NCBI GenBank assembly: GCA_964422035.1
Contig: CAYQZQ010000001.1
Location: 50,528 to 114,527, forward strand
Reading direction: 5' to 3'
Length of the DNA stretch: 64,000 bases
DNA from: an uncultured Pseudomonadales bacterium
GTDB lineage: Bacteria; Patescibacteriota; Microgenomatia; UBA1400; Chazhemtobacteraceae
The translations under genes were made by a program, and so were the position numbers. The notes under the pieces are model-generated. The model ran no database searches, was not told where the DNA came from, and worked only from the letters and a program-made list of their open reading frames with translations. Below, one piece after another: positions 38,426 through 49,396 of this stretch (position 1 is its first letter; each line of letters begins with the position of its first letter).

Positions 38426-40945
38426 ATGAGTAAAGATCATTATAATCACCAGAAAATCGAAGATAAATGGAGTAGTAAGTGGGGAGATGAGAGAGTTTAT
38501 GAGGTTGATTTGGAAAAGGCAGAGAAACCTTTTTATAACCTAATGATGTTTCCTTATCCGTCAGCGGAAGGGCTGCATGTAGGTAATGTATATGCTTTTG
38601 TAGGTGCTGATATATATGGCAGATACCAGCGACTTTTAGGTAAAGATGTATTTGAGCCGATCGGTCTGGACGGGTTTGGAATTCACTCTGAAAATTACGC
38701 CCTAAAGATAGGTAAGCACCCAGCAGAGCAGGCTAAGATCTCTGAGAAGAATTTTTATAAGCAACTTAAGATGATTGGTAATGGTTTTGCTTGGGAGAAC
38801 AAGTTGGAGACATATAAAAGTGAGTATTATGGCTGGACTCAGTGGATGTTTGTTCAGATGTATAAAAATGGTTTGGCATATAAAAAAGCTGCACAAGTAA
38901 ACTGGTGTGGGCAGTGTAAGACTGTGCTGGCAGATGAGCAAGTAGAGGCTGGAGCTTGTGAGAGATGTAAAAGTAAGGTGGAAAGAAGGGAAGTTGAGAG
39001 CTGGCATTTTAAGATAACTGATTATGCAGATAAACTTTTGGAGAATATTGATGGGGAAGACAAGGACAGTCAGACAGGTAAGGTAGGGCCGGTAGAAGAT
39101 GACTGGGAAGCTAGTCGTGATGGCTTGCGTTGGCCGGAGAAGATAAAAACAGCTCAAAGACAGTGGATTGGCAGGAAAAAAGGAGTGAAGGTAAAGTTTG
39201 ATATAAAGGGTAAAGAATTTGATTTGGAGATATTTACTACTCGACTTGATACTATTTTTGGTACCACTTTTATGGCTGTGTCTCCGGAGACGGTAAAGAG
39301 CTGGCAGAAGCGGGGTCTTAAGGTGAGCGAAAAAGTTGAAAACTATGTTGAAGAGAGTCTGCGCATGAGTGATCAGGAAAGATTGGTTGAGGCAGGAGAG
39401 AAAAGTGGGGTAAGGCTGGAAAAGATTAGAGCGATTAACCCAGTAAATGAGGAAGAGCTACCTGTTTATGTGGGTGATTATGTACTATCAACGGTGGGGA
39501 CAGGTGCGGTAATGGGAGTACCAGGCCATGACCAGCGTGACTATGATTTTGCAGAGAAATACGGATTGCCAATTGAGAAAGTGATTAAGCCTGAAGATGG
39601 TGAAGTTAAAAGTGAGGGAGCCTTTGAGGAAGATGGAGTACTTGTCAACTCAGGCAAGTACAGCGATTTAAGTTCAAAGGGAGCTAGAGAAGAGATACTG
39701 GAAAGCTTGGAAAGCAGGGGATTGGCTGAGAGACAAGTTAATTATCATCTGCGGGACTGGGTTATTTCTCGTCAACGCTATTGGGGTCCGCCGATTCCGA
39801 TGGTTAAGTGTGAGAAGTGTGACTGGCAGCCGGTACCAGAGGAAGAGTTGCCAGTTGAGTTGCCGGATATTGAAGAGTATAAGCCTAAAGGAGGAGGAAC
39901 AACGCCTTTGTCTAATGCGCCTGATGAGTGGAAAGAGACTGAGTGTCCTAAGTGTGGAGGTAAGGCTAAGCGTGAGCTTAATGTGTCAGATTCGTTTGTT
40001 GACAGTTCTTGGTACTTTTTGGCCTATGTGCATATGAATGAAGGTAGATGGGTGAAGGAGGGCAAAAATGAGCCGTTTGTTGAAGAAAGGTTGGAAAAAT
40101 GGCTGCCAGTGGATGCTTATATTGGTGGAGCGGAGCATGCGGTGTTGCATTTGCTTTACTCGAGATTTGTAACTATGGCTTTGCATGACTTTGGTTATTT
40201 GTCTTTTGAAGAACCGTTTCCATTTTTGTACTCGCATGGCCTGATCATTAAAGATGGCTCCAAGATGAGTAAGTCAAAGGGGAATGTGATTAACCCGGAT
40301 GAGTATATAGAAAAATACGGGGCGGATGCATTACGGACTTACTTGATGTTTTTGGGTCCATATAGTCAGGGAGGAGACTTTCAAGACTCGGGCATGAGAG
40401 GGGTAAGAAAGTGGTTGGATAGAGTATACAGAACAGTATTGGATGAGAACAAACAAGCAAAGCAGACAACCCAGAAGAGTAAAAGAAAGCTGGCGGAGAC
40501 GATTAAAAAGGCCAAGGAAGACTACGAGAAGCTCTCATACAACACGGTGGTGGCAGCTTTGATGGAGTTTTCCAATATGTGGCGCGAAGAGGGGGAGAAG
40601 CTGTCAAAGAAAGATATGGAGAAGTTTTTGGTTATTCTTTCACCTTTGGCACCGTTTATTAGTGAAGAGTTGTATGAAGAAATTGGAGGAGAGGGGTTAC
40701 TACACCAAAGAGAGTGGCCTGAGTTTGAAGAAAAACTTTTGGAGAAAAAACAAGTAGAGATTCCAGTTCAGGTGAATGGCAAGCTGCGGGCTGTTATTAA
40801 GATGGAGAAAAGTGAGGCTCAAGATGAGAAGAAAGTAGTGGAAAAGGCTTTAAAGCAGAATCAGGTGCAAAAGTATGTGGAAGGTAAAGAGCGAAAGGTG
40901 GTATTCGTACCGGGAAGATTGGTTAATTTGGTAATAAAAGAATAA
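38426..40945 (+). CDS. leuS: Leucyl-tRNA synthetase (HIGH motif reads HVGN)
   Basis: FPYPSAEGLHVGN...; CP1 editing domain; zinc knuckle CGQCKT...CERC; KMSKS present (SKMSKSKGN); anticodon-binding and C-terminal domains. Confidence 0.95.
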   Translation: MSKDHYNHQKIEDKWSSKWGDERVYEVDLEKAEKPFYNLMMFPYPSAEGLHVGNVYAFVGADIYGRYQRLLGKDVFEPIGLDGFGIHSENYALKIGKHPAEQAKISEKNFYKQLKMIGNGFAWENKLETYKSEYYGWTQWMFVQMYKNGLAYKKAAQVNWCGQCKTVLADEQVEAGACERCKSKVERREVESWHFKITDYADKLLENIDGEDKDSQTGKVGPVEDDWEASRDGLRWPEKIKTAQRQWIGRKKGVKVKFDIKGKEFDLEIFTTRLDTIFGTTFMAVSPETVKSWQKRGLKVSEKVENYVEESLRMSDQERLVEAGEKSGVRLEKIRAINPVNEEELPVYVGDYVLSTVGTGAVMGVPGHDQRDYDFAEKYGLPIEKVIKPEDGEVKSEGAFEEDGVLVNSGKYSDLSSKGAREEILESLESRGLAERQVNYHLRDWVISRQRYWGPPIPMVKCEKCDWQPVPEEELPVELPDIEEYKPKGGGTTPLSNAPDEWKETECPKCGGKAKRELNVSDSFVDSSWYFLAYVHMNEGRWVKEGKNEPFVEERLEKWLPVDAYIGGAEHAVLHLLYSRFVTMALHDFGYLSFEEPFPFLYSHGLIIKDGSKMSKSKGNVINPDEYIEKYGADALRTYLMFLGPYSQGGDFQDSGMRGVRKWLDRVYRTVLDENKQAKQTTQKSKRKLAETIKKAKEDYEKLSYNTVVAALMEFSNMWREEGEKLSKKDMEKFLVILSPLAPFISEELYEEIGGEGLLHQREWPEFEEKLLEKKQVEIPVQVNGKLRAVIKMEKSEAQDEKKVVEKALKQNQVQKYVEGKERKVVFVPGRLVNLVIKE

Positions 40946-41659: not shown

Positions 41660-41687
41660 CTTGACAGGGGGTGATATAAAGATATAC
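41660..41687 (+). promoter_or_regulatory. Strong sigma70-type promoter (TTGACA-16-TATACT)
   Basis: TTGACA 41660-41665, TATACT 41682-41687. About 75 nt upstream of an intrinsic terminator. Confidence 0.55.
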
Positions 41688-41693
41688 TACAAA

Positions 41694-41777
41694 CAGATGT
41701 CTGAATTTGAGGTGCAGGACACCATAGTTTTAGCAAAAAGCTAATAAAACTTATTAACCGCCGTTTGGCGGTTTTTT
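41694..41777 (+). ncRNA. Candidate about 80-nt small RNA or cis-acting leader (promoter to intrinsic terminator)
   Basis: Predicted transcript ACAAACAGAUGUCUGAAUUUGAGGUGCAGGACACCAUAGUUUUAGCAAAAAGCUAAUAAAACUUAUUAACCGCCGUUUGGCGGUUUUUUU. Contains an internal imperfect hairpin (GUUUUAGC/GCUAA-AAAC) and a terminal terminator hairpin. Confidence 0.4.
41757..41777 (+). terminator. Rho-independent terminator (CCGCC-GTTT-GGCGG followed by T7)
   Basis: Perfect 5-bp GC stem, 4-nt loop, 7 consecutive T. Confidence 0.7.
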
Positions 41778-41843
41778 TGCAGTTGAATTGACAGGCATAA
41801 GAATAACTTATAATATATATTTATAATAATTTAAAATAAAAAA

Positions 41844-42776
41844 ATGAGTGAAAAATCAATAAATTCAGAGCAACCAAAGAATATTGAAAAAGGGGAGGAC
41901 AAAAAAGGAGGTATATCGAGAAGAAGGTTCTTGAAAATAGCAGGAGCATTGGTGGCGGTGGGGGCAATAACTAAGTTAGAGAAAGCTACAGGAGTGACTA
42001 AGGGATTGGGTAAGGAAAAGGGGGAGAAAGTGTTATCAGGTGAATCTGTGGAGTTTAAGGTTGGGGATAGGATTAAAGAAATCTATCAAATTAACGGAGT
42101 GGGGATAAATCCAGAATTTGATAATGAGACGGAAGGGTCAGCAGAGGATATAATGGCTCTGGTTTTTGTTAAGGCTTGTCATAAGGCGTGGCAGCGACAT
42201 CATAAGGATTTAGAGACTGGCTTTGATGAGTATGTGAGTATGCTGGATGAGGCAGAAAAAACAGGAGAATATGAGCAAATAATGTTTACTGTGGGAGGAG
42301 CGGATTTAACGGCTGGCGGAGATTATGATCAGATGATGATAAATCCTCTGGAAGGGTTTGATGTGGTGGTAGCTGATTATATATATGATGACATGAGAAT
42401 GAAGATGAGAATCGAGAGGCAAGAGGCGAGTTATAGGAGTAGTGATAAAGTGATGGATGAAGATGTGTCTCCTATCGAGGTTAAAAAAGACAATGTTATG
42501 CTTGGGTACGCAAAGAGTGAAGAAGGAAAGTTGCAGTTGATGTTTAATTTACCCAGTCAGGCATGGGCTAAAGATCCTACTTCTTCAAAACATCTGACAG
42601 AAAGGTTGATGATATCCTTGATAATGTTGCAAAGTTCCCCGGGCGAACAGATGGGTCATACGATTAGTGGTGAGAAGCAGCAAGAAGAGCTTAATTCAAA
42701 GTTGGAAAGAGAGTCAGATGGGTATAAGAAGCTGATGTTTGTTAGTGATGAGATTGGTATACTGGCAGCTGAGTGA
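41844..42776 (+). CDS. Secreted hypothetical protein with a twin-arginine (Tat) signal peptide
   Basis: N-terminus ...GGISRRRFLKIAGALVAVGAITK matches the Tat consensus S/T-R-R-x-F-L-K followed by a hydrophobic h-region. Confidence 0.55.
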   Translation: MSEKSINSEQPKNIEKGEDKKGGISRRRFLKIAGALVAVGAITKLEKATGVTKGLGKEKGEKVLSGESVEFKVGDRIKEIYQINGVGINPEFDNETEGSAEDIMALVFVKACHKAWQRHHKDLETGFDEYVSMLDEAEKTGEYEQIMFTVGGADLTAGGDYDQMMINPLEGFDVVVADYIYDDMRMKMRIERQEASYRSSDKVMDEDVSPIEVKKDNVMLGYAKSEEGKLQLMFNLPSQAWAKDPTSSKHLTERLMISLIMLQSSPGEQMGHTISGEKQQEELNSKLERESDGYKKLMFVSDEIGILAAE

Positions 42777-42799
42777 TGTAAGGAGAAGTAATAGGCAAG

Positions 42800-45073
42800 T
42801 TGTGTGTTGTTGGTATTTTTTGTTATATTGGAGTTATGAGGAGATGGAAAAGATGGGATATTTTGGTTTTATTAATATTTTTGGTGATTTTAATTATTGG
42901 AGGATTGTGGATATTGAGACCTATAATTAATGCGAATAGGAGAATTAAGTTTGAGAATAATTCTTCAGTTAAAATTAGTAAATCATTTATAGGAATGGTA
43001 AGGCTTGATGAGTTTCTAGAAGAAAATGAGGTATGGAGTAATGGGTTAAGGGCCGAAGGATCAGAAGGAGAGGTGAAGTTTTCAAAGATTAAGTTTGTCT
43101 ATCAAGATGATAAATTATCGAATTATATACTGGTGGATGCTCAAGGAGTATCAGCAAGTTATGGTAATGGATATCTTGAAGGAGATGTTTATAGAGTACC
43201 CTTGCATGTGAATGTGAGGCTGAAGTCATTGAGTGAGGCAGATTATGAGCGGATGATAAATTTTCTGCCGATATATGCAGTTTTGGCCTTACAGAGAGAG
43301 AAATATTTTGATAGGCAGGTGGCGGAAGAGGTAATGACGGAGAGCTTGGGAGTAATGGAGGGAGTGCGGGAGAATGAGCACTGGATTTTGGCGAGGGAGA
43401 GGACGATAGTAGATATCGGCAGAGGGTTGTTTAGGAAGATTTGGAATTTTTTCACAGTTGATGAAATTGAGGCATACTGGGCTTGTGGCGGGAGTTATAC
43501 TTGTAGTCCGATTGGTTGTGGGGGTCTACATGGTGAATGCAGTTGTGCATATTCGGGTGGTGGTGGTAATAGTAGTGCTTGTGTTTGGGGAATGGCGAAT
43601 AACTGTACAGGATATTGTGGGAATGCGGCGTATCCTTGTAAAACATCGGATAATTGTAGTACCTATTGGGTAGATGAAGAAGGTGGTGGTAATGGTGGTA
43701 ATGGTGGGTGCACTCCGAGTTGTTCATCACCACTATGTGGTCAGGGCGATGGATGTGGAGGTACGTGTTCAGATGAAGATGTGGGTACATATACAGAAGG
43801 TGCTTGGAGTGCATGTGATCCGGTTACTTTTGAGCGAACTAGAACAATAGATTATGCATGTGATGAGACTGATCAGACAGAGACAGAGGATTGTAGAGGG
43901 GAGATAACCGGTACTTTTTTTGATGCCAGTGAGGTAGATAACTGTAGTAATATAGTTGCGCAGCCTAAGATAGAGGGAGTGATGATACAGGCAGAGGCGC
44001 AGACAAATCATAGTGGTGTATATAGTGATGTTACAAGCGCAGATGGTAGTTACTTGATAAATGGGACAAGTTTAAGGGTGCCGGATGATTATTTAATGAG
44101 CTTTTCAGGGTTAGATACGGCTTTATATATTGGAGATGCGCCCAAGTTAATGTGTGACTTTGGAGTGGCGGATACTCCCAGTACTTGGGTAGCTAGTTTG
44201 AGTGATCAGGCTGAGGTGGAACAATGGAGAGTGGGTTTTTGGAGAATATATGGCAGTTGGTTTCAAGTGCAGGGTGGTGATGTGTATGCAGATGAGGGGA
44301 TTGAATCAGTAATTCCTGCGAATTGTGGTGAAGCAGAGAACTGGGAGAGTTGTGGAAATGTGATAGATGCAGGGGGAAGTTATACCAGCAGTACACCTTT
44401 GGTAAGGCAGGTATTTAACACAGATGGCAGTCGTGATAATCCGGGAGTGGCATTTGTGGGAAATGGAGATATAGATCTGGGTGGGGCAGGTAATGCAGTG
44501 GTAAGCAGTGAGGGCTGGGAGGCTGTCTCAGACTATCAAGGAAGGAATGCAGATTACGGATACTTTAATGTGGTAACAGGTAGGGTAGACAGGCAGGCTT
44601 GGGAGGGGAGTGGCAAGCCTAGCGGATCTAGTACTGGCATATACACAAGCTCAGGGAATGTAACCATTGATAGTGATTGGGATCTGGGGGGAGGAGGAAG
44701 CGATGAGACGATGGTGGTGGTGCATGATGGTAGTGTGAATATCACAAGTAATATTAACGTTGAGAAAGGCTCCTACTTGGCTGTAATAGCGTCAGGGAGT
44801 ATTAATGTGGCCAGCAACGTAACCTTATTGGAAGGGGTTTATGTAGCAGACAGTACTATAAACATCGAATCAACGGATGATACCAGTACAGATCAACAGT
44901 TTATTGGTGAAGGAACGTTTATTGGCTGGGATGGAGTTTCGTTAAACAGAGATAGAGGTATAACTAACAACAGTGAGCCACCACACAGATTTATTTTCCG
45001 TCAGGACTTTATTGTTAATGGGCCGGATGGGATGAGGAGTTCGAGGGTAACATGGAGGGAGATTAGGCCGTAG
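42800..45073 (+). CDS. Large (757 aa) membrane-anchored cell-surface protein with a Cys/Gly-rich module and a beta-helix-like C-terminal region
   Basis: N-terminal TM anchor (WDILVLLIFLVILIIGGLWIL). Central region with about 30 Cys and GGGNGGNGG tracts. WSACDPVTFERTRT..YAC segment reminiscent of a thrombospondin type-1 repeat. C-terminal repetitive V/I-x-S/N strands (SVNITSNINVEKGSYLAVIASGSINVASNVTLLEGVYVADSTINIES). Confidence 0.55.
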   Translation: MCVVGIFCYIGVMRRWKRWDILVLLIFLVILIIGGLWILRPIINANRRIKFENNSSVKISKSFIGMVRLDEFLEENEVWSNGLRAEGSEGEVKFSKIKFVYQDDKLSNYILVDAQGVSASYGNGYLEGDVYRVPLHVNVRLKSLSEADYERMINFLPIYAVLALQREKYFDRQVAEEVMTESLGVMEGVRENEHWILARERTIVDIGRGLFRKIWNFFTVDEIEAYWACGGSYTCSPIGCGGLHGECSCAYSGGGGNSSACVWGMANNCTGYCGNAAYPCKTSDNCSTYWVDEEGGGNGGNGGCTPSCSSPLCGQGDGCGGTCSDEDVGTYTEGAWSACDPVTFERTRTIDYACDETDQTETEDCRGEITGTFFDASEVDNCSNIVAQPKIEGVMIQAEAQTNHSGVYSDVTSADGSYLINGTSLRVPDDYLMSFSGLDTALYIGDAPKLMCDFGVADTPSTWVASLSDQAEVEQWRVGFWRIYGSWFQVQGGDVYADEGIESVIPANCGEAENWESCGNVIDAGGSYTSSTPLVRQVFNTDGSRDNPGVAFVGNGDIDLGGAGNAVVSSEGWEAVSDYQGRNADYGYFNVVTGRVDRQAWEGSGKPSGSSTGIYTSSGNVTIDSDWDLGGGGSDETMVVVHDGSVNITSNINVEKGSYLAVIASGSINVASNVTLLEGVYVADSTINIESTDDTSTDQQFIGEGTFIGWDGVSLNRDRGITNNSEPPHRFIFRQDFIVNGPDGMRSSRVTWREIRP

Positions 45074-45148: not shown

Positions 45149-45718
45149 ATGAGATTAAAAGAGTTAGAAGACAAGCTGGAGTATCCGATTTTTAGTTCAA
45201 ATCAGGTTGAAAGGATGTTTGTTGAGGAAGAGAATAATAGTATAAATATTCAGCTCTCCCGTTGGGAAAAGAGAGGGGAGCTGGTGCGGTTAAAAAGAGG
45301 GATATATAAGCTGGCGGATAGGGAAGTGGAGGAGATGGTAGTGGCGAGTGTTATGTATAGGCCTTCTTATGTAAGCTTGGAGACGGCTTTGCATTATCAG
45401 GGGGTGATACCGGAGGTGGTGAATATGATTACCAGTGTGACAACGATTACCTCAAAAGAGTTTGAAAACCAGATGGGGGTTTTTGTATACAGCAAACTTA
45501 AAAAAGAGCTTTATTTTGGTTTTAAGAAAGTGAAGGATAGTAAAAGTGGCATGTACTACCAGATAGCCGAGCCGGAGAAGGCTTTATTGGACTGGATTTA
45601 CGTGAAGGGAGTAAAAGACTTGCAGGCAAGCAGAGTAGATAGAAGTCTTTTGGAGGAGGAAAAGTTGTCCAGGTGGGCTGAAAAGTACCCGGACTGGGTG
45701 GGGGAGGTAATTGATTAA
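45149..45718 (+). CDS. abiEi: AbiEi-family antitoxin/regulator (second copy)
   Basis: RLKRGIYKL...VMYRPSYVSLETALHYQGVIPE is the AbiEi N-terminal domain signature; upstream of AbiEii-2. Confidence 0.75.
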   Translation: MRLKELEDKLEYPIFSSNQVERMFVEEENNSINIQLSRWEKRGELVRLKRGIYKLADREVEEMVVASVMYRPSYVSLETALHYQGVIPEVVNMITSVTTITSKEFENQMGVFVYSKLKKELYFGFKKVKDSKSGMYYQIAEPEKALLDWIYVKGVKDLQASRVDRSLLEEEKLSRWAEKYPDWVGEVID

Positions 45719-45730
45719 TTTAATAATAAA

Positions 45731-46513
45731 ATGAATAATTTAATAACCAACTTTGATCAGATCTTGCAGATGGCGGACGATCAGGGAGTGCCTTTAAAAA
45801 AGCGGGGTGTTTTAAGGGAGTATCTGCAAAGTAAATTTCTGGCAGAGTTTTATGGTTTGAAAAAGGCTAGCAAGATGTCGTTTGTGGGCGGGACGAGCCT
45901 GAGGTTTTTGGAAGGACTGCCTAGATTTTCAGAAGATCTGGATTTTGACAATTTGGGTTTAAGTGATGACCAGGTAGAAGAGTTGGTGGAGGAAGTGGTG
46001 GGTAGTTTTGAGGCGGAGAATATAGATTTGGAACTTAAAAAAACGATAAGGGAGCACAAGAAGTATTTTGAATTAAGGTTTCCCAAGATACTTTATCAGC
46101 TGGGGATATCCTCACATGCAAAGGAGAAGATGATGATTAAGATTGACTATGCCCGTCACTGGCGGGGGCAAAAGACCAGGTCGGTTTTGTTTTCGAAGTA
46201 CGGGTTTATTGAGCAGATAGTCAGCAATCAGTTGGATCAGATTTTGGTGCAAAAGATAGCGGCTTATGTGGGGCGTAGGCAAGTGCAGCCGAGAGATATG
46301 TATGACATAGTCTGGTTGTATGCTCGGGGAGTAAGACTCGATAGGGAGTTTATGAAGGAAAATGGAAAAACAGAGCTGATAGAAAAGGCTCGAGAAAGGT
46401 TTGAAGAAAAGGGAGTTTCTCAGGCTGACAAAAGAAGACTGAGACCCTTTTTATTCAAAGAAGGTGAGGTGGATAAGATAGAGTTGTTAGGTGAAGTTTT
46501 GTCTAAGTTGTAA
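45731..46513 (+). CDS. abiEii: AbiEii/AbiGii-family nucleotidyltransferase toxin (second copy)
   Basis: NTase motif FVGGTSLRFLEGLPRFSEDLDFD; 260 aa. Confidence 0.8.
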   Translation: MNNLITNFDQILQMADDQGVPLKKRGVLREYLQSKFLAEFYGLKKASKMSFVGGTSLRFLEGLPRFSEDLDFDNLGLSDDQVEELVEEVVGSFEAENIDLELKKTIREHKKYFELRFPKILYQLGISSHAKEKMMIKIDYARHWRGQKTRSVLFSKYGFIEQIVSNQLDQILVQKIAAYVGRRQVQPRDMYDIVWLYARGVRLDREFMKENGKTELIEKARERFEEKGVSQADKRRLRPFLFKEGEVDKIELLGEVLSKL

Positions 46514-47903: not shown

Positions 47904-48542
47904 TTATTGATTAAGATATTGATTGAAGTTCTTATAAGAAGGCTCAAAATAAAGTCGAGTAAAGATATGGCTAAATTCTTCCTGGTTGGGTTTGGTCTTT
48001 TTAATTTCTTCAAGAAGTTTGAGAAATGTATCTTGGGGAAAGTTATCAAGCAGGATTTTGACTGCCCAGCCGGCTTCAGAATAGATTTCTTTACCTGGCT
48101 TGTTAAAAAAGTCTAAGGACTTAGTTAGTTTTTCAGGCTGGTCTTTCCATTTAAGTTGACCGGATAGGTAGGTGGCGATACCCTCATCTAGCCATCGAGG
48201 CTGGGTGTAGTTGTCGGTTAAGACATAATAAAAGCAATGAGTTAGCTCATGTTTTAGAAGGGCGGCGTATTTGTCTTGTGAATAAGAATGACAACTCTCA
48301 GTTTCGAAGTTTTCTTTATCTAAAAGATAAACGGTGGGGGGAGCAAAAGATGTCCAACCTATGACCCAGTCATCTGTTTTGCGGTCTTTTAATAGATCAA
48401 TGGTTTGGCGATTAGGGACAAGAAAGACTTGAGGTAGGTGATGCTTCCAGCCCAGCTTGAAGAATTGATTTAAGTCTTTGATGGCTTGTTGGTAGGTTTT
48501 TTGCAGTTGTGGGTCTGATAGGGGTTGGAGTTTGTAGAGCAT
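47904..48542 (-). CDS. Gluzincin-type (HExxH...E) putative metallopeptidase, peptidase-MA-like
   Basis: HELTHCFYYV...(18 aa)...EGIATYL is the HEXXH-x18-E gluzincin signature. The ORF-track N-terminal extension (to 48788) overlaps the MTase gene and is probably not translated; the ATG at 48542 (MLYKLQP...) is used here. Confidence 0.45.
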   Translation of the reverse strand: MLYKLQPLSDPQLQKTYQQAIKDLNQFFKLGWKHHLPQVFLVPNRQTIDLLKDRKTDDWVIGWTSFAPPTVYLLDKENFETESCHSYSQDKYAALLKHELTHCFYYVLTDNYTQPRWLDEGIATYLSGQLKWKDQPEKLTKSLDFFNKPGKEIYSEAGWAVKILLDNFPQDTFLKLLEEIKKTKPNQEEFSHIFTRLYFEPSYKNFNQYLNQ

Positions 48543-48583
48543 AGGCTGATTATATAAGAAAAGAGGTTGAGTATAATAAAAAT

Positions 48584-49396
48584 ATGAGTAAGGTTTGGGA
48601 TGAGTTATATAACAAGCAGGGAAAAAAGTATGTAAGCCGGCTGGATGGAGTTGGTAAGCTGGCTGATTTTTGGCAGGAAGAAGAGGTGAAGAATGTATTG
48701 GATGTGGGCTGTGGGAGTGGTAAACATCTGCTAAAGCTAGTTGAAGCAGGATTCGAGGTGACAGGCTTTGATGTCTCCCAGGAGGCAATTAGGTTAGCCA
48801 AAGAGCGCTTCAAAGCAGCAGGAGAAAGGGGAGAGTTTAAGAGGGCTTCGATGTATGAGAGCTGGCCTTATGAGGATAATAGCTTTGGAGCGGTGATGGC
48901 GCTGCGATCTTTTAATCATGGTAACAGGAAACAAATCAGAGAAGCTATTGTGGAGATAAAGAGAGTACTGAAACCGCAGGGTTGGTTTTATATGTCGGTA
49001 TTAAAGATACCAGAAAAGCAGATTAAGACAGACAGGGGGGAAACTACCTTGAATAACTTGCCGGTTAAGATGATTGAGCCACGCACCTATGTACCTTTGG
49101 AGGGGAAAGAGAAGGGTCAGGTTCATTTTATCTTCAACGAGCAGATTCTAAGAGAGGATTTTGAGGATTTTAAGATCGAGGATTTGTGGGTAGAGTACGG
49201 AGAAAAGCAGTGGGAAAAGTATTGGTGTTTATTGGTGAAAAATAGGCAAGCTGGAGAGAAAAAATACAGTCGGAGTTTGAGTAAACTGCAACAAGCGATG
49301 CAAGAGTCAGGAATCAGTGAGGACGAGCTTCAGAAAGCAGGAGAGAAGATTAGAAAGAAGTTAGTCAAGGAGAAAGGTCTTAAGGTTTTGGATTAA
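48584..49396 (+). CDS. Class I SAM-dependent methyltransferase (paralogue A of a three-member family in this window)
   Basis: VLDVGCGSGKHL motif I; C-terminal block ...LRSFNHG...LKPQGWFYM...PRTYVPLEGKEKGQVHFIFN...EDLWVEYGEKQWEKYWCLLVKN shared with the ORFs at 57632 and 56267. Confidence 0.75.
   Translation: MSKVWDELYNKQGKKYVSRLDGVGKLADFWQEEEVKNVLDVGCGSGKHLLKLVEAGFEVTGFDVSQEAIRLAKERFKAAGERGEFKRASMYESWPYEDNSFGAVMALRSFNHGNRKQIREAIVEIKRVLKPQGWFYMSVLKIPEKQIKTDRGETTLNNLPVKMIEPRTYVPLEGKEKGQVHFIFNEQILREDFEDFKIEDLWVEYGEKQWEKYWCLLVKNRQAGEKKYSRSLSKLQQAMQESGISEDELQKAGEKIRKKLVKEKGLKVLD

Follow-up and report, generated by a model that had tools for sequence, protein, structure and literature searches.

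Positions 41844–45073 of the window, the 64-kb stretch of DNA analyzed here, carry two co-directional genes on the + strand that we read, with moderate confidence, as a two-gene surface adhesin cassette of a CPR/Patescibacteria bacterium. The larger protein, encoded by gene 2, would stay anchored in the cytoplasmic membrane through an N-terminal helix that is not cleaved off. Outward from there would follow a spacer domain particular to this lineage, a Cys/Gly stalk rich in disulfides, and a small Cys module resembling a thrombospondin repeat (TSR). Beyond this module, a CnaB/transthyretin-like beta-sandwich would lead to a terminal beta-solenoid ‘head’ folded like ice-binding proteins and ComZ. 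Together with the small modules, this head may recognize a ligand carried by a different cell or by a surface, probably a glycan or a polymer of the cell wall, and this binding is what would make the gene 2 protein an adhesin. Gene 1 would be co-transcribed with gene 2, exported or anchored through a Tat-type (or Sec-type) N-terminal signal, and would serve as an accessory partner at the position held in most family loci by a coupled single-pass membrane protein. A host- or partner-attachment role had been proposed by a first-pass annotation of this DNA and is the most reasonable reading of gene 2, given that its predicted folds match those of adhesins and pilus proteins; overall, the observations in that annotation were partly confirmed and its interpretation partly supported.

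A large part of bacterial diversity falls within CPR/Patescibacteria, whose cultivated members live attached to other microbes. To our knowledge, hardly any host-recognizing molecules of CPR have been described outside Saccharibacteria. The family of gene 2 is large, with thousands of clusters, and its secreted, presumably disulfide-rich proteins match no Pfam or NCBIfam model. It combines a confidently predicted solenoid of the ComZ/ice-binding type, hypervariable N-terminal modules, a membrane partner that is conserved and coupled, and direct linkage to pilin genes in several clades, and so offers a concrete candidate for what determines host-attachment specificity in lineages without a genetic system.

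Locus organization and gene models

The open reading frames place gene 1 at 41844–42776 and gene 2 at 42800 or 42836 to 45073. The publicly recorded gene 2 protein starts at the ATG at 42836 and has 745 residues (42836–45073); the 757 residues given earlier can be obtained, but require a TTG start at 42800. The earlier description of this protein as giant does not fit a family whose median length is 673 residues. An identical 745-residue protein is encoded on a 725,544-bp NCBI contig, indicating that the window comes from a tiny (~725 kb), CPR-type genome, and the relatives of gene 2 are almost all from Patescibacteria; the suspected CPR lineage is thus borne out. Homologs exist for both genes, which puts the pair beyond chance.

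The two genes are separated by 59 nt, without overlap. A sigma-70-like promoter candidate (TTGACA, a 17-nt spacer, and TAATAT) lies on the same strand at 41788–41816, 28 nt 5' of gene 1, and matches 10 of the 12 consensus positions by pattern alone. The stretch between the genes has neither a terminator-like site nor a promoter match above 9/12, and the candidate promoter probably drives both genes as a single transcript. A candidate small RNA 5' of gene 1 was rejected: it has no Rfam match, its folding z-score is -1.98, and it is not conserved in the intergenic region of locus L002. An AbiE pair adjoins the locus. Membership in a defense system, considered because of this pair, was dropped, as neither gene 1 nor gene 2 has a PADLOC match. 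A phage origin or tail-fiber relationship was likewise set aside, since gene 2 has no PHROGs match and no relatives on viral contigs.

Domain architecture and predicted fold of gene 2

Gene 2 opens with a signal-anchor helix at residues 8–28 (42857–42919; DILVLLIFLVILIIGGLWILR), preceded by MRRWKRW. The hydrophobic stretch of 20 residues agrees with the membrane anchor annotated initially, reaches a Kyte-Doolittle value of 3.3 over 19 residues, and is modeled as a helix spanning residues 2–35. No AxA site follows it; the homologs carry cleavable-looking signal peptides. Next comes a lineage-specific region (residues 29–215, 42920–43480) that is missing from most relatives, with a counterpart of loosely similar length in a single family member (P0003). 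The possibility that the N-terminal 215 residues represent a fused upstream partner was discarded, as phmmer, hhalign (probability 2.9%), and BLASTP gave nothing significant.

The following segments are Cys- and Gly-rich. The stalk (residues 217–311, 43484–43768) holds 15 cysteines and the family motif CTPSCSSPLCGQGDGCGGTC, and it leads into a small TSR-like Cys module at residues 313–353 (43772–43894; ...GAWSACDPVTFERTRTIDYACDETDQTETEDC). The Gly tracts reported at first are present as SGGGGNSS and EEGGGNGGNGG. The cysteine count was overstated: the protein has 22 cysteines, 19 of which fall within the 154 residues from 217 to 370, rather than about 30 in about 170. Behind the module lies a predicted beta-sandwich of putative CnaB, SdrD-B, or transthyretin (CarboxypepD_reg) type (~residues 354–468, 43895–44239), and the protein ends in a C-terminal right-handed beta-solenoid (~residues 470–745, 44243–45070).

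A deep AlphaFold model of residues 210–745, built from a 135-sequence alignment, has a mean pLDDT of 83.3 and exceeds 90 from residue 319 onward. The folds are therefore confident from residue 319, including the beta-helical C-terminus anticipated in the annotation. In the Cys module, pLDDT reaches ~90–97, with strands at residues 333–340 and 347–352. No fold can be assigned to the stalk (residues 217–311), because its pLDDT is below 50. A full-length model from 10 sequences has a pLDDT of 42.6, and residues 29–215 are of low confidence.

The best fold matches of the gene 2 model are ice-binding proteins, ComZ, adhesin domains, and pilins, all of them non-enzymatic. Against Pfam, NCBIfam, and PDB sequences, gene 2 yields nothing that reaches threshold, and no characterized adhesin is linked to it by sequence; the family profile likewise finds no solved structure at E≤1. 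Two family members, P0010 (23.8 bits) and P0011 (13.8 bits), approach DUF7305 (PF23981), both below its cut-off of 27, and the window protein has no match to this model.

The matched folds are generic beta-solenoids and beta-sandwiches that also occur in enzymes and structural proteins, which counts against the adhesin reading, as do the missing sequence link to a known adhesin and the low model confidence of the stalk and of the N-terminal 215 residues. The solenoid could instead be an enzyme or a structural envelope element, such as a beta-helix that degrades glycans or peptidoglycan, or a wall component akin to an S-layer. Right-handed beta-helices occur widely among polysaccharide lyases, hydrolases, and tailspikes (PMC6561018), and invariant R, D, and N residues in the C-terminal stretch of the family could make an active or metal-binding site. 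In related genomes, moreover, the gene 2 homolog keeps its place on the chromosome, close to S41 and HtrA proteases, and this constancy points to a housekeeping function in the envelope. We nevertheless regard this explanation as quite unlikely: the closest folds are non-enzymatic, no enzyme family was detected, viral contigs hold no relatives, and the hypervariable N-terminal modules are easier to reconcile with diverse binding than with one constant enzymatic task.

A thrombospondin-repeat-like module

The similarity to a TSP1 repeat that was noted at the outset is genuine as far as the motif goes and is shared across the family, yet none of the tests reaches significance. Gene 2 carries the string AWSACDPVTFERTRTIDYAC with W-S-x-C...R-T-R-T, and the motif W..C...R.R..C occurs in 45 of 153 family proteins; the family consensus of the module is C.E(C)GP..W..WS.C...H.RTRTC.E.CG.D.C...E.C.G. 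The order W-S-x-(W-S-x)-C...R-T-R-T-(R-T)-C...C...C over ~40–45 residues is shared with the TSRs of the TSP_1 clan, which includes the PTN/MK C-terminal domain. Unlike a TSR, the module lacks the CSxTCG turn throughout the gene 2 family, and its A-B connection is for this reason four residues shorter. The window copy furthermore retains three of the six TSR cysteines (C327, C342, and C353), while typical family members have five to six.

Profile comparisons gave a similar picture. TSP_1 (PF00090) and its clan have no match on whole gene 2 at E≤1 or on 10 family members at E≤0.1. Isolated family modules match models of the TSR clan and no other Pfam models, always below threshold: TSP_1 at E 0.026–0.77 and 10–15 bits (cut-off 21.6), TSP1_spondin at 13 bits (cut-off 41), and TSP1_CFP_C at 15.7 bits (cut-off 27). 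The sole match of the window segment is PTN_MK_C at 18.4 bits (cut-off 25.3). The sole PDB profile match of the module is the BAI1 TSR at E=2, and hhalign gives a probability of 75% against a TSR alignment.

These results bear on a second alternative, in which gene 2 has a true TSP1 repeat and gene 1 encodes a genuine Tat substrate (folded and possibly cofactor-bearing), the two jointly forming an attachment apparatus. We consider this combination very unlikely. For the module, the exclusive matches to TSR-clan models and the hhalign probability speak in its favor; against it stand the lack of any significant match, the reduced cysteine set, the missing turn, and the absence of a TSR among the top 50–60 fold matches, a list dominated by larger domains. 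If the module does prove homologous, a mostly eukaryotic adhesion module would extend to CPR bacteria.

Gene 1 and its candidate Tat-type signal

Gene 1 (41844–42776) encodes a 310-residue orphan that is predicted to be exported or membrane-anchored. Single-sequence and two-sequence profile searches of 5.8 billion proteins returned one homolog (P0014, 49% identity), and beyond its signal, gene 1 has no match in Pfam, NCBIfam, PADLOC, PHROGs, or PDB sequences. The gene for this homolog directly adjoins a gene 2 family member in locus L002. Genes 1 and 2 are thus linked, the lone gene 1 homolog abutting a gene 2 relative just as gene 1 does in the window.

The N-terminal sequence of gene 1 (...KKGGISRRRFLKIAGALVAVGAITKL...) contains the twin-arginine motif named in the first-pass annotation, SRRRFLK, at residues S25 to K31, followed by a short, weakly hydrophobic h-region from I32 to T43 (IAGALVAVGAIT); motif and h-region together span 41916–41972. 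The hydrophobic maximum of gene 1 is only 1.97 over 15 residues, and no clear AxA cleavage site follows the h-region. Several features suggest Tat use and favor the Tat half of the alternative above. Firstly, Tat signals typically pair such a motif with a short, Gly/Ala-rich h-region, and the TIGR01409 score narrowly exceeds the cut-off of that model (16.9 bits against 16.7). Secondly, the combination of RR and a hydrophobic stretch occurs once across the six frames of the 64-kb window. Finally, the motif is largely kept in the homolog, as SRKDFLK, and a Cys-His pair (KACHKAW) is conserved between the two proteins in the mature part.

Other results weigh against a true Tat substrate. The Pfam TAT_signal model (PF10518) reaches 21.8 bits, below its gathering cut-off of 22.7. 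The homolog itself does not keep the RR pair and has no TAT_signal match at E≤0.01. In the 64-kb window, neither tatA nor tatC was found by tblastn with E. coli and B. subtilis TatA/TatC queries. In favor of Tat use, Tat components are known from some CPR classes, TatA/TatC having been reported in Microgenomatia, Paceibacteria, and Saccharimonadia (PMC9166423). The Tat aspect, initially held to be remarkable in itself for a CPR lineage, is therefore a minor one.

Family distribution and genomic neighbors

The gene 2 family comprises at least 3017 representative clusters at 50% identity (E≤1e-3), of which 575 remain at E≤1e-30; nearly all come from Patescibacteria. Twelve relatives are close ones. 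Most of the 36 genome loci are labeled Patescibacteria or as a CPR group (Collierbacteria, Woesebacteria, Paceibacterota/Pacebacteria). Sixteen carry the record labels uncultured Pseudomonadales or Gammaproteobacteria, and two are labeled Anaerolineales and Spirochaetia. The beta-solenoid is the family-defining domain and is always C-terminal. The modules that precede it are highly variable, and one member (P0011) has a discoidin/F5-F8 type C domain. Among 120 full-length relatives, 91 carry an N-terminal hydrophobic signal, and cysteines make up a median of 4.1% of the residues; the motif CGQxDGCGG occurs in 36 of 153 family proteins.

A recurrent neighbor is an upstream, same-strand ORF of 160–340 residues with an N-terminal TM segment, found at 22 of 33 assessable family genes and also at loci L042 and L043. 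In 20 of those 22 cases, it overlaps the start of the family gene, so that the two are translationally coupled. The shared architecture makes gene 1 a positional analog of these partners and nothing closer: the proposal that gene 1 is a diverged copy of them was rejected after a phmmer all-against-all comparison, hhalign, and BLASTP against the partners of the closest homologs were all negative. This lack of similarity, together with a 59-nt gap in place of an overlap, counts against the two-gene cassette.

Pilin genes are the other frequent neighbors and raise a third alternative, in which gene 2 is an accessory or tip protein of a type IV pilus, a ‘ComZ without pilin domain’ whose solenoid would dock on a minor pilin and whose N-terminal binding modules would be displayed at the pilus tip to recognize hosts or capture DNA. 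A pilin gene lies near the family member in 13 of the 36 loci and immediately downstream in 12, where it encodes a GFTLIELL-type protein of ~170 residues in the same orientation and as part of a type IV pilus cluster. In L010, the single locus read from end to end, the cluster also holds PilD- and PilC-like ORFs, as judged from their sequences. There is also a precedent in Saccharibacteria, in which large proteins that are encoded in the pilus locus and lack a PilD signal have been proposed as tip adhesins (PMC11623550). For the window protein, this reading is nonetheless unlikely. It has a membrane-anchor helix of its own, the eight loci of its clade have no pilin neighbors, and the 64-kb window contains neither pilin-like or type IV pilus genes nor similarity to the pilus genes of the linked loci. 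In addition, the prepilin motif (G-F-x-x-x-E) is present neither in gene 2 nor in any of the 120 full-length relatives, and identity to the pilus-linked members over the solenoid is a mere 25–32%.

Relationship to known systems

Under the favored adhesin reading, the nearest structural parallels are instructive. ComZ of Thermus thermophilus (PDB 6qvi), a competence-pilus tip protein, matches the fold of the gene 2 solenoid without sequence similarity. In ComZ, the solenoid is inserted in a pilin-like domain; the gene 2 family lacks both a pilin domain and a prepilin motif. Its members instead have either Sec-type signals or a TM anchor, and their Cys-rich and beta-sandwich modules precede the solenoid; the window copy is located away from pilus genes. 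Ice-binding proteins (DUF3494/IBP-1 fold; 3wp9, 6bg8, and 7bwx) share with gene 2 a right-handed triangular beta-solenoid at 15–17% identity. The gene 2 solenoid is longer and ends a modular, Cys-rich protein, and neither gene 2 nor 19 relatives have a Pfam match to the ice-binding family. Ice binding is not expected.

A further reading unites these parallels in an undescribed, Patescibacteria (CPR)-wide host-recognition system. Here, a Cys-rich protein, either secreted or anchored, would dock its ComZ-like solenoid on a dedicated single-pass membrane partner or on a minor pilin at the tip of type IV pili, its small W/R-rich Cys module would be a true prokaryotic TSR relative that grips cells as in apicomplexan adhesins, and gene 1 would be delivered folded by Tat. 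We regard this as speculative and improbable.

The predicted beta-sandwich may be compared with those of Gram-positive surface adhesins and pilins (CnaB/SdrD-B) and with CarboxypepD_reg (transthyretin-like) domains. Unlike those adhesins, gene 2 has no LPXTG sortase signal and is anchored at its N-terminus, and no isopeptide-forming domain was detected in it. The domain composition of gene 2 also differs from that of the tapirins of Caldicellulosiruptor and of PilX1 and PilX2 of Saccharibacteria TM7x, with no sequence relation detected. In TM7x, PilX1 is a beta-jelly roll and PilX2 a beta-propeller, unlike the solenoid-bearing gene 2.

A CPR-wide family of predicted beta-solenoid proteins

Gene 2 (42800 or 42836 to 45073, + strand) follows gene 1 (41844-42776, + strand; a 310-aa ORF) in the same direction, and its 745-aa product from the ATG at 42836 exactly matches a public record on a 725,544-bp NCBI contig of a very small genome. 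The first-pass annotation had described a "giant" 757-aa membrane-anchored protein with about 30 cysteines in about 170 aa. The anchor-like helix is present, but the recorded length is 745 aa, which "giant" overstates, and the cysteines number 22, with 19 in residues 217-370. The GGGNGG-type tracts and the thrombospondin-like string AWSACDPVTFERTRTIDYAC are present as described.

The N-terminus reads MRRWKRW and continues into a 20-residue hydrophobic helix (Kyte-Doolittle 3.3), the putative transmembrane anchor (residues 8-28). A lineage-specific region (29-215), a Cys/Gly stalk (217-311), a small Cys module (313-353), a beta-sandwich (~354-468) and a beta-solenoid (~470-745) follow. With just 10 sequences, a full-length AlphaFold model was of poor quality (pLDDT 42.6). 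Residues 210-745 modelled with a 135-sequence alignment reached a mean pLDDT of 83.3, with values over 90 throughout residues 319-745 and below 50 in the Cys/Gly-rich stretch 210-310. The predicted solenoid (pLDDT >90) bears out the beta-helix-like C-terminal domain proposed earlier, and Foldseek agrees with the fold assignment. Sub-threshold Pfam matches, to CarboxypepD_reg in five homologs and to DUF7305 in two (within their C-terminal domain), are compatible with the modelled folds.

The best-supported reading, which we hold to be somewhat probable, is a surface cassette in which gene 2 would be held by its N-terminal helix and would present a disulfide-rich stalk and binding head to the cell outside, with gene 1 as its exported or anchored accessory protein. 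That the solenoid, which matches no family model above threshold, has an enzymatic or structural role in the envelope is quite unlikely. Viral contigs, PHROGs and PADLOC gave no pointer to a phage or defence function.

Gene 2 itself has no match at E<=1 in Pfam or NCBIfam. A word-indexed search retrieved 12 relatives, and 1.84 billion representatives, searched exhaustively by profile, yielded 3017 proteins at E<=1e-3 (575 at E<=1e-30), whose conserved part always runs to the C-terminus. Taking one genome per species left 36 loci, most with record titles of Patescibacteria or a CPR group (Collierbacteria, Woesebacteria, Paceibacterota/Pacebacteria), one titled Anaerolineales and one Spirochaetia. 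Third-party MAG records titled Pseudomonadales or Gammaproteobacteria, labels as deposited, account for 16 of the 36. Titles of "uncultured Pseudomonadales" or "Gammaproteobacteria" are carried by L006, L007, L010, L012, L013, L015, L016, L019, L020, L026, L028, L029, L034-L037 and L040. Some of these MAG loci, such as L007, have the gene order of the window (S41 protease, HtrA, RF-1), so the labels look unreliable.

Among 153 surveyed family proteins (120 full-length), none has a prepilin motif and median Cys content is 4.1%; 91 of the 120 have an N-terminal hydrophobic signal. Close relatives of gene 2 have cleavable-looking Sec signals (for example ...IRA/A and ...AKA/S), in contrast to its own uncleaved-looking anchor and ~190 extra residues, for which only the relative P0003 offers a loose counterpart. 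Several genomes have two or three tandem paralogs (L010 5002-8208; L011 5023-8218; L041 4996-8208; L015 5026-7604; L024 5494-8444); L010, L011 and L041 each pair a copy with a Cys-rich N-terminus with a shorter one. A second recurrent element, CxPxCxxxxCGQxDGCGGxC, occurs in 36 of the 153 proteins, among them at residues 292-311 of the window protein and in the N-terminal halves of the relatives P0010, P0051, P0057 and P0118. After it, many members read like an Ig/FN3-type domain (...W.A..KA..Y.......Y.F.P....Y..RVRA.N..C).

A thrombospondin-like module

The W-S-x-C...RTRT segment of gene 2 is no chance string; alignment of relatives yields a family-wide consensus, C-x-E-(C)-G-P...W-(S-x-W)-S-x-C...H-x-R-T-R-T-C-x-E-x-C-G-x-D-x-C...E-x-C-x-G. 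Its core is carried by 45 of the 153 proteins, and some members have the module in tandem. In the window protein the module is degenerate: Ile replaces the usual Cys after RTRT, and three Cys remain. Searched as whole proteins, gene 2 (E<=1) and 10 family members (E<=0.1) gave no match to Pfam TSP_1. Isolated modules matched almost exclusively models of the thrombospondin type-1 repeat (TSR) clan, every one below threshold: TSP_1 (E 0.026-0.77), TSP1_spondin (E 0.12) and TSP1_CFP_C (E 0.02), with PTN_MK_C at E 0.0027, also below threshold, for the window segment. A 20-module profile searched against all PDB sequences gave a single match at E<=10, the TSR of BAI1 (7r84, E=2). Aligned by hhalign to nine TSRs, the module profile scored a probability of 75% (P 2.5e-5), with the W, C, RxRxC and next Cys paired and the CSxTCG turn appearing as a 4-residue deletion. 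The TSP1 resemblance noted in the first pass stands as a family-wide motif with TSR-clan affinities but does not extend to any match above threshold; it suggests a distant homology or a convergence, not TSR membership.

Membrane partners and pilin neighbours

Of 33 family genes that could be assessed, 22 have immediately upstream, on the same strand, an ORF encoding 160-340 aa with an N-terminal TM segment; L042 and L043 have this arrangement too. The ORF overlaps the family gene start by ~4-13 nt in 20 cases, a signature of translational coupling, which suggests that most family genes are coupled to a membrane partner. These partners have no recognisable sequence likeness between clades and no similarity to gene 1 or the gene 2 N-terminus. 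Gene 1 occupies the same upstream position, but with a 59-nt gap to gene 2; from position, it may be the partner's equivalent.

A pilin gene lies nearby in 13 of the 36 loci. In 12 of these, a GFTLIELL-type pilin gene (~170 aa) directly follows the family gene on the same strand, with further pilin genes clustered around it; in L010, the only locus to be read completely, there are also ORFs reading as PilD and PilC. By our own estimate, chance adjacency would be around a few percent in a ~1 Mb genome with a few pilin clusters. Type IV pilus linkage is seen in some clades of the family. The family is related in fold to ice-binding proteins and to ComZ, the Thermus thermophilus competence-pilus tip protein, in which a pilin-like domain has an inserted ice-binding-protein-like beta-solenoid and which binds both DNA and the neighbouring pilin PilA2 (PMC6561018). 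A pilus-tip accessory role for gene 2, as a "ComZ without pilin domain", would fit this likeness but is unlikely: in a neighbour-joining tree built from the solenoid domain, the window protein falls in a clade of eight loci with synteny to S41 and HtrA proteases and RF-1 and no pilin neighbours, and the window holds no pilin motif or similarity to pilus genes.

Read as a surface protein, gene 2 would be a known kind of object, a bacterial surface adhesin of modular build that includes a beta-solenoid; what is new is the combination of its architecture, a CPR-wide spread without a matching Pfam or NCBIfam model, the apparent coupled membrane partner and the TSR-like module. A literature search found no description of the family. 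For uncultivated CPR lineages it is a concrete candidate for recognising hosts, a function that we infer entirely.

Gene 1 and the Tat signal

Gene 1 begins MSEKSINSEQPKNIEKGEDKKGGISRRRFLKIAGALVAVGAITKLEKATG, and the Tat-signal models are borderline: the motif recognised in the first pass exceeds the cut-off of TIGR01409 (16.9 against 16.7) but falls short of that of Pfam PF10518 (21.8 against 22.7 bits). The h-region is short and Gly/Ala-rich, as is typical of Tat signals; a normal transmembrane helix would need more residues. On reading, the sequence has no obvious AxA cleavage site. The signal is the only RR-plus-hydrophobic site across the window's six frames. Single-sequence and then profile searches of 5.8 billion proteins retrieved one homolog, P0014 (49% identity), making gene 1 close to an orphan. 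P0014 keeps most of the motif (SRKDFLK) without the RR pair and has no TAT_signal match; its gene is the immediate downstream neighbour of a gene-2 family member (locus L002), so both known copies abut the family.

A tblastn search with E. coli and B. subtilis TatA/TatC found no tatA or tatC within the 64-kb window. TatA/TatC have been reported from Microgenomatia, Paceibacteria and Saccharimonadia (PMC9166423), which makes the use of Tat by a CPR lineage, previously flagged as notable, unremarkable by itself. The stricter version of the earlier proposal, a Tat substrate beside a true TSP1 domain, draws on the TIGR01409 score and the RTRT motif; given the absence of RR in P0014 and the sub-threshold TSR matches, we consider it very unlikely.

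Transcription and strand composition

Genes 1 and 2 are probably co-transcribed, judging from pattern matches: a sigma-70-like site (41788-41816) lies just before gene 1, and the spacer between the genes has neither a terminator-like nor a strong promoter-like site. The 400-nt greA-gene 1 gap holds a possible independent small transcription unit (41661-41781, + strand) with the region's best promoter-like site (TTGACA, 16 nt spacer, TATACT; 11/12 matches) and, ~70 nt past it, a GC-rich hairpin and T-run (41756-41781). An Rfam search gave no match to this element, its folding z-score is only -1.98, and it is not conserved in the equivalent L002 spacer. Directly downstream of gene 2 lies an AbiEi/AbiEii toxin-antitoxin pair (45149-46513, + strand; PADLOC E 4e-48 and 1.5e-43). 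At least two further genomes likewise carry AbiE genes a few kb or less from gene-2 relatives (L001 273-1007; L005 4036-5407 and 7693-8376; L043 5012-6659 and 13738-14397), which may just reflect many AbiE copies per small genome.

The window (1-64000) shows extreme strand asymmetry, with 19,125 G against 7,547 C (GC skew +0.43; +0.22 to +0.55 in every 2-kb bin), far above the values usual in bacterial chromosomes. Nearly all genes lie on the + strand. Third codon positions give a + strand skew of +0.5 to +0.69 whichever strand carries the gene, which argues for a strand-wide mutational bias, not gene orientation alone. Many long minus-strand ORFs overlap real plus-strand genes (for example 43452-43814, 38702-39157 and 47904-48788); since the minus strand is G-poor and has few TAG/TGA stops, they are most likely artefacts, not genes.
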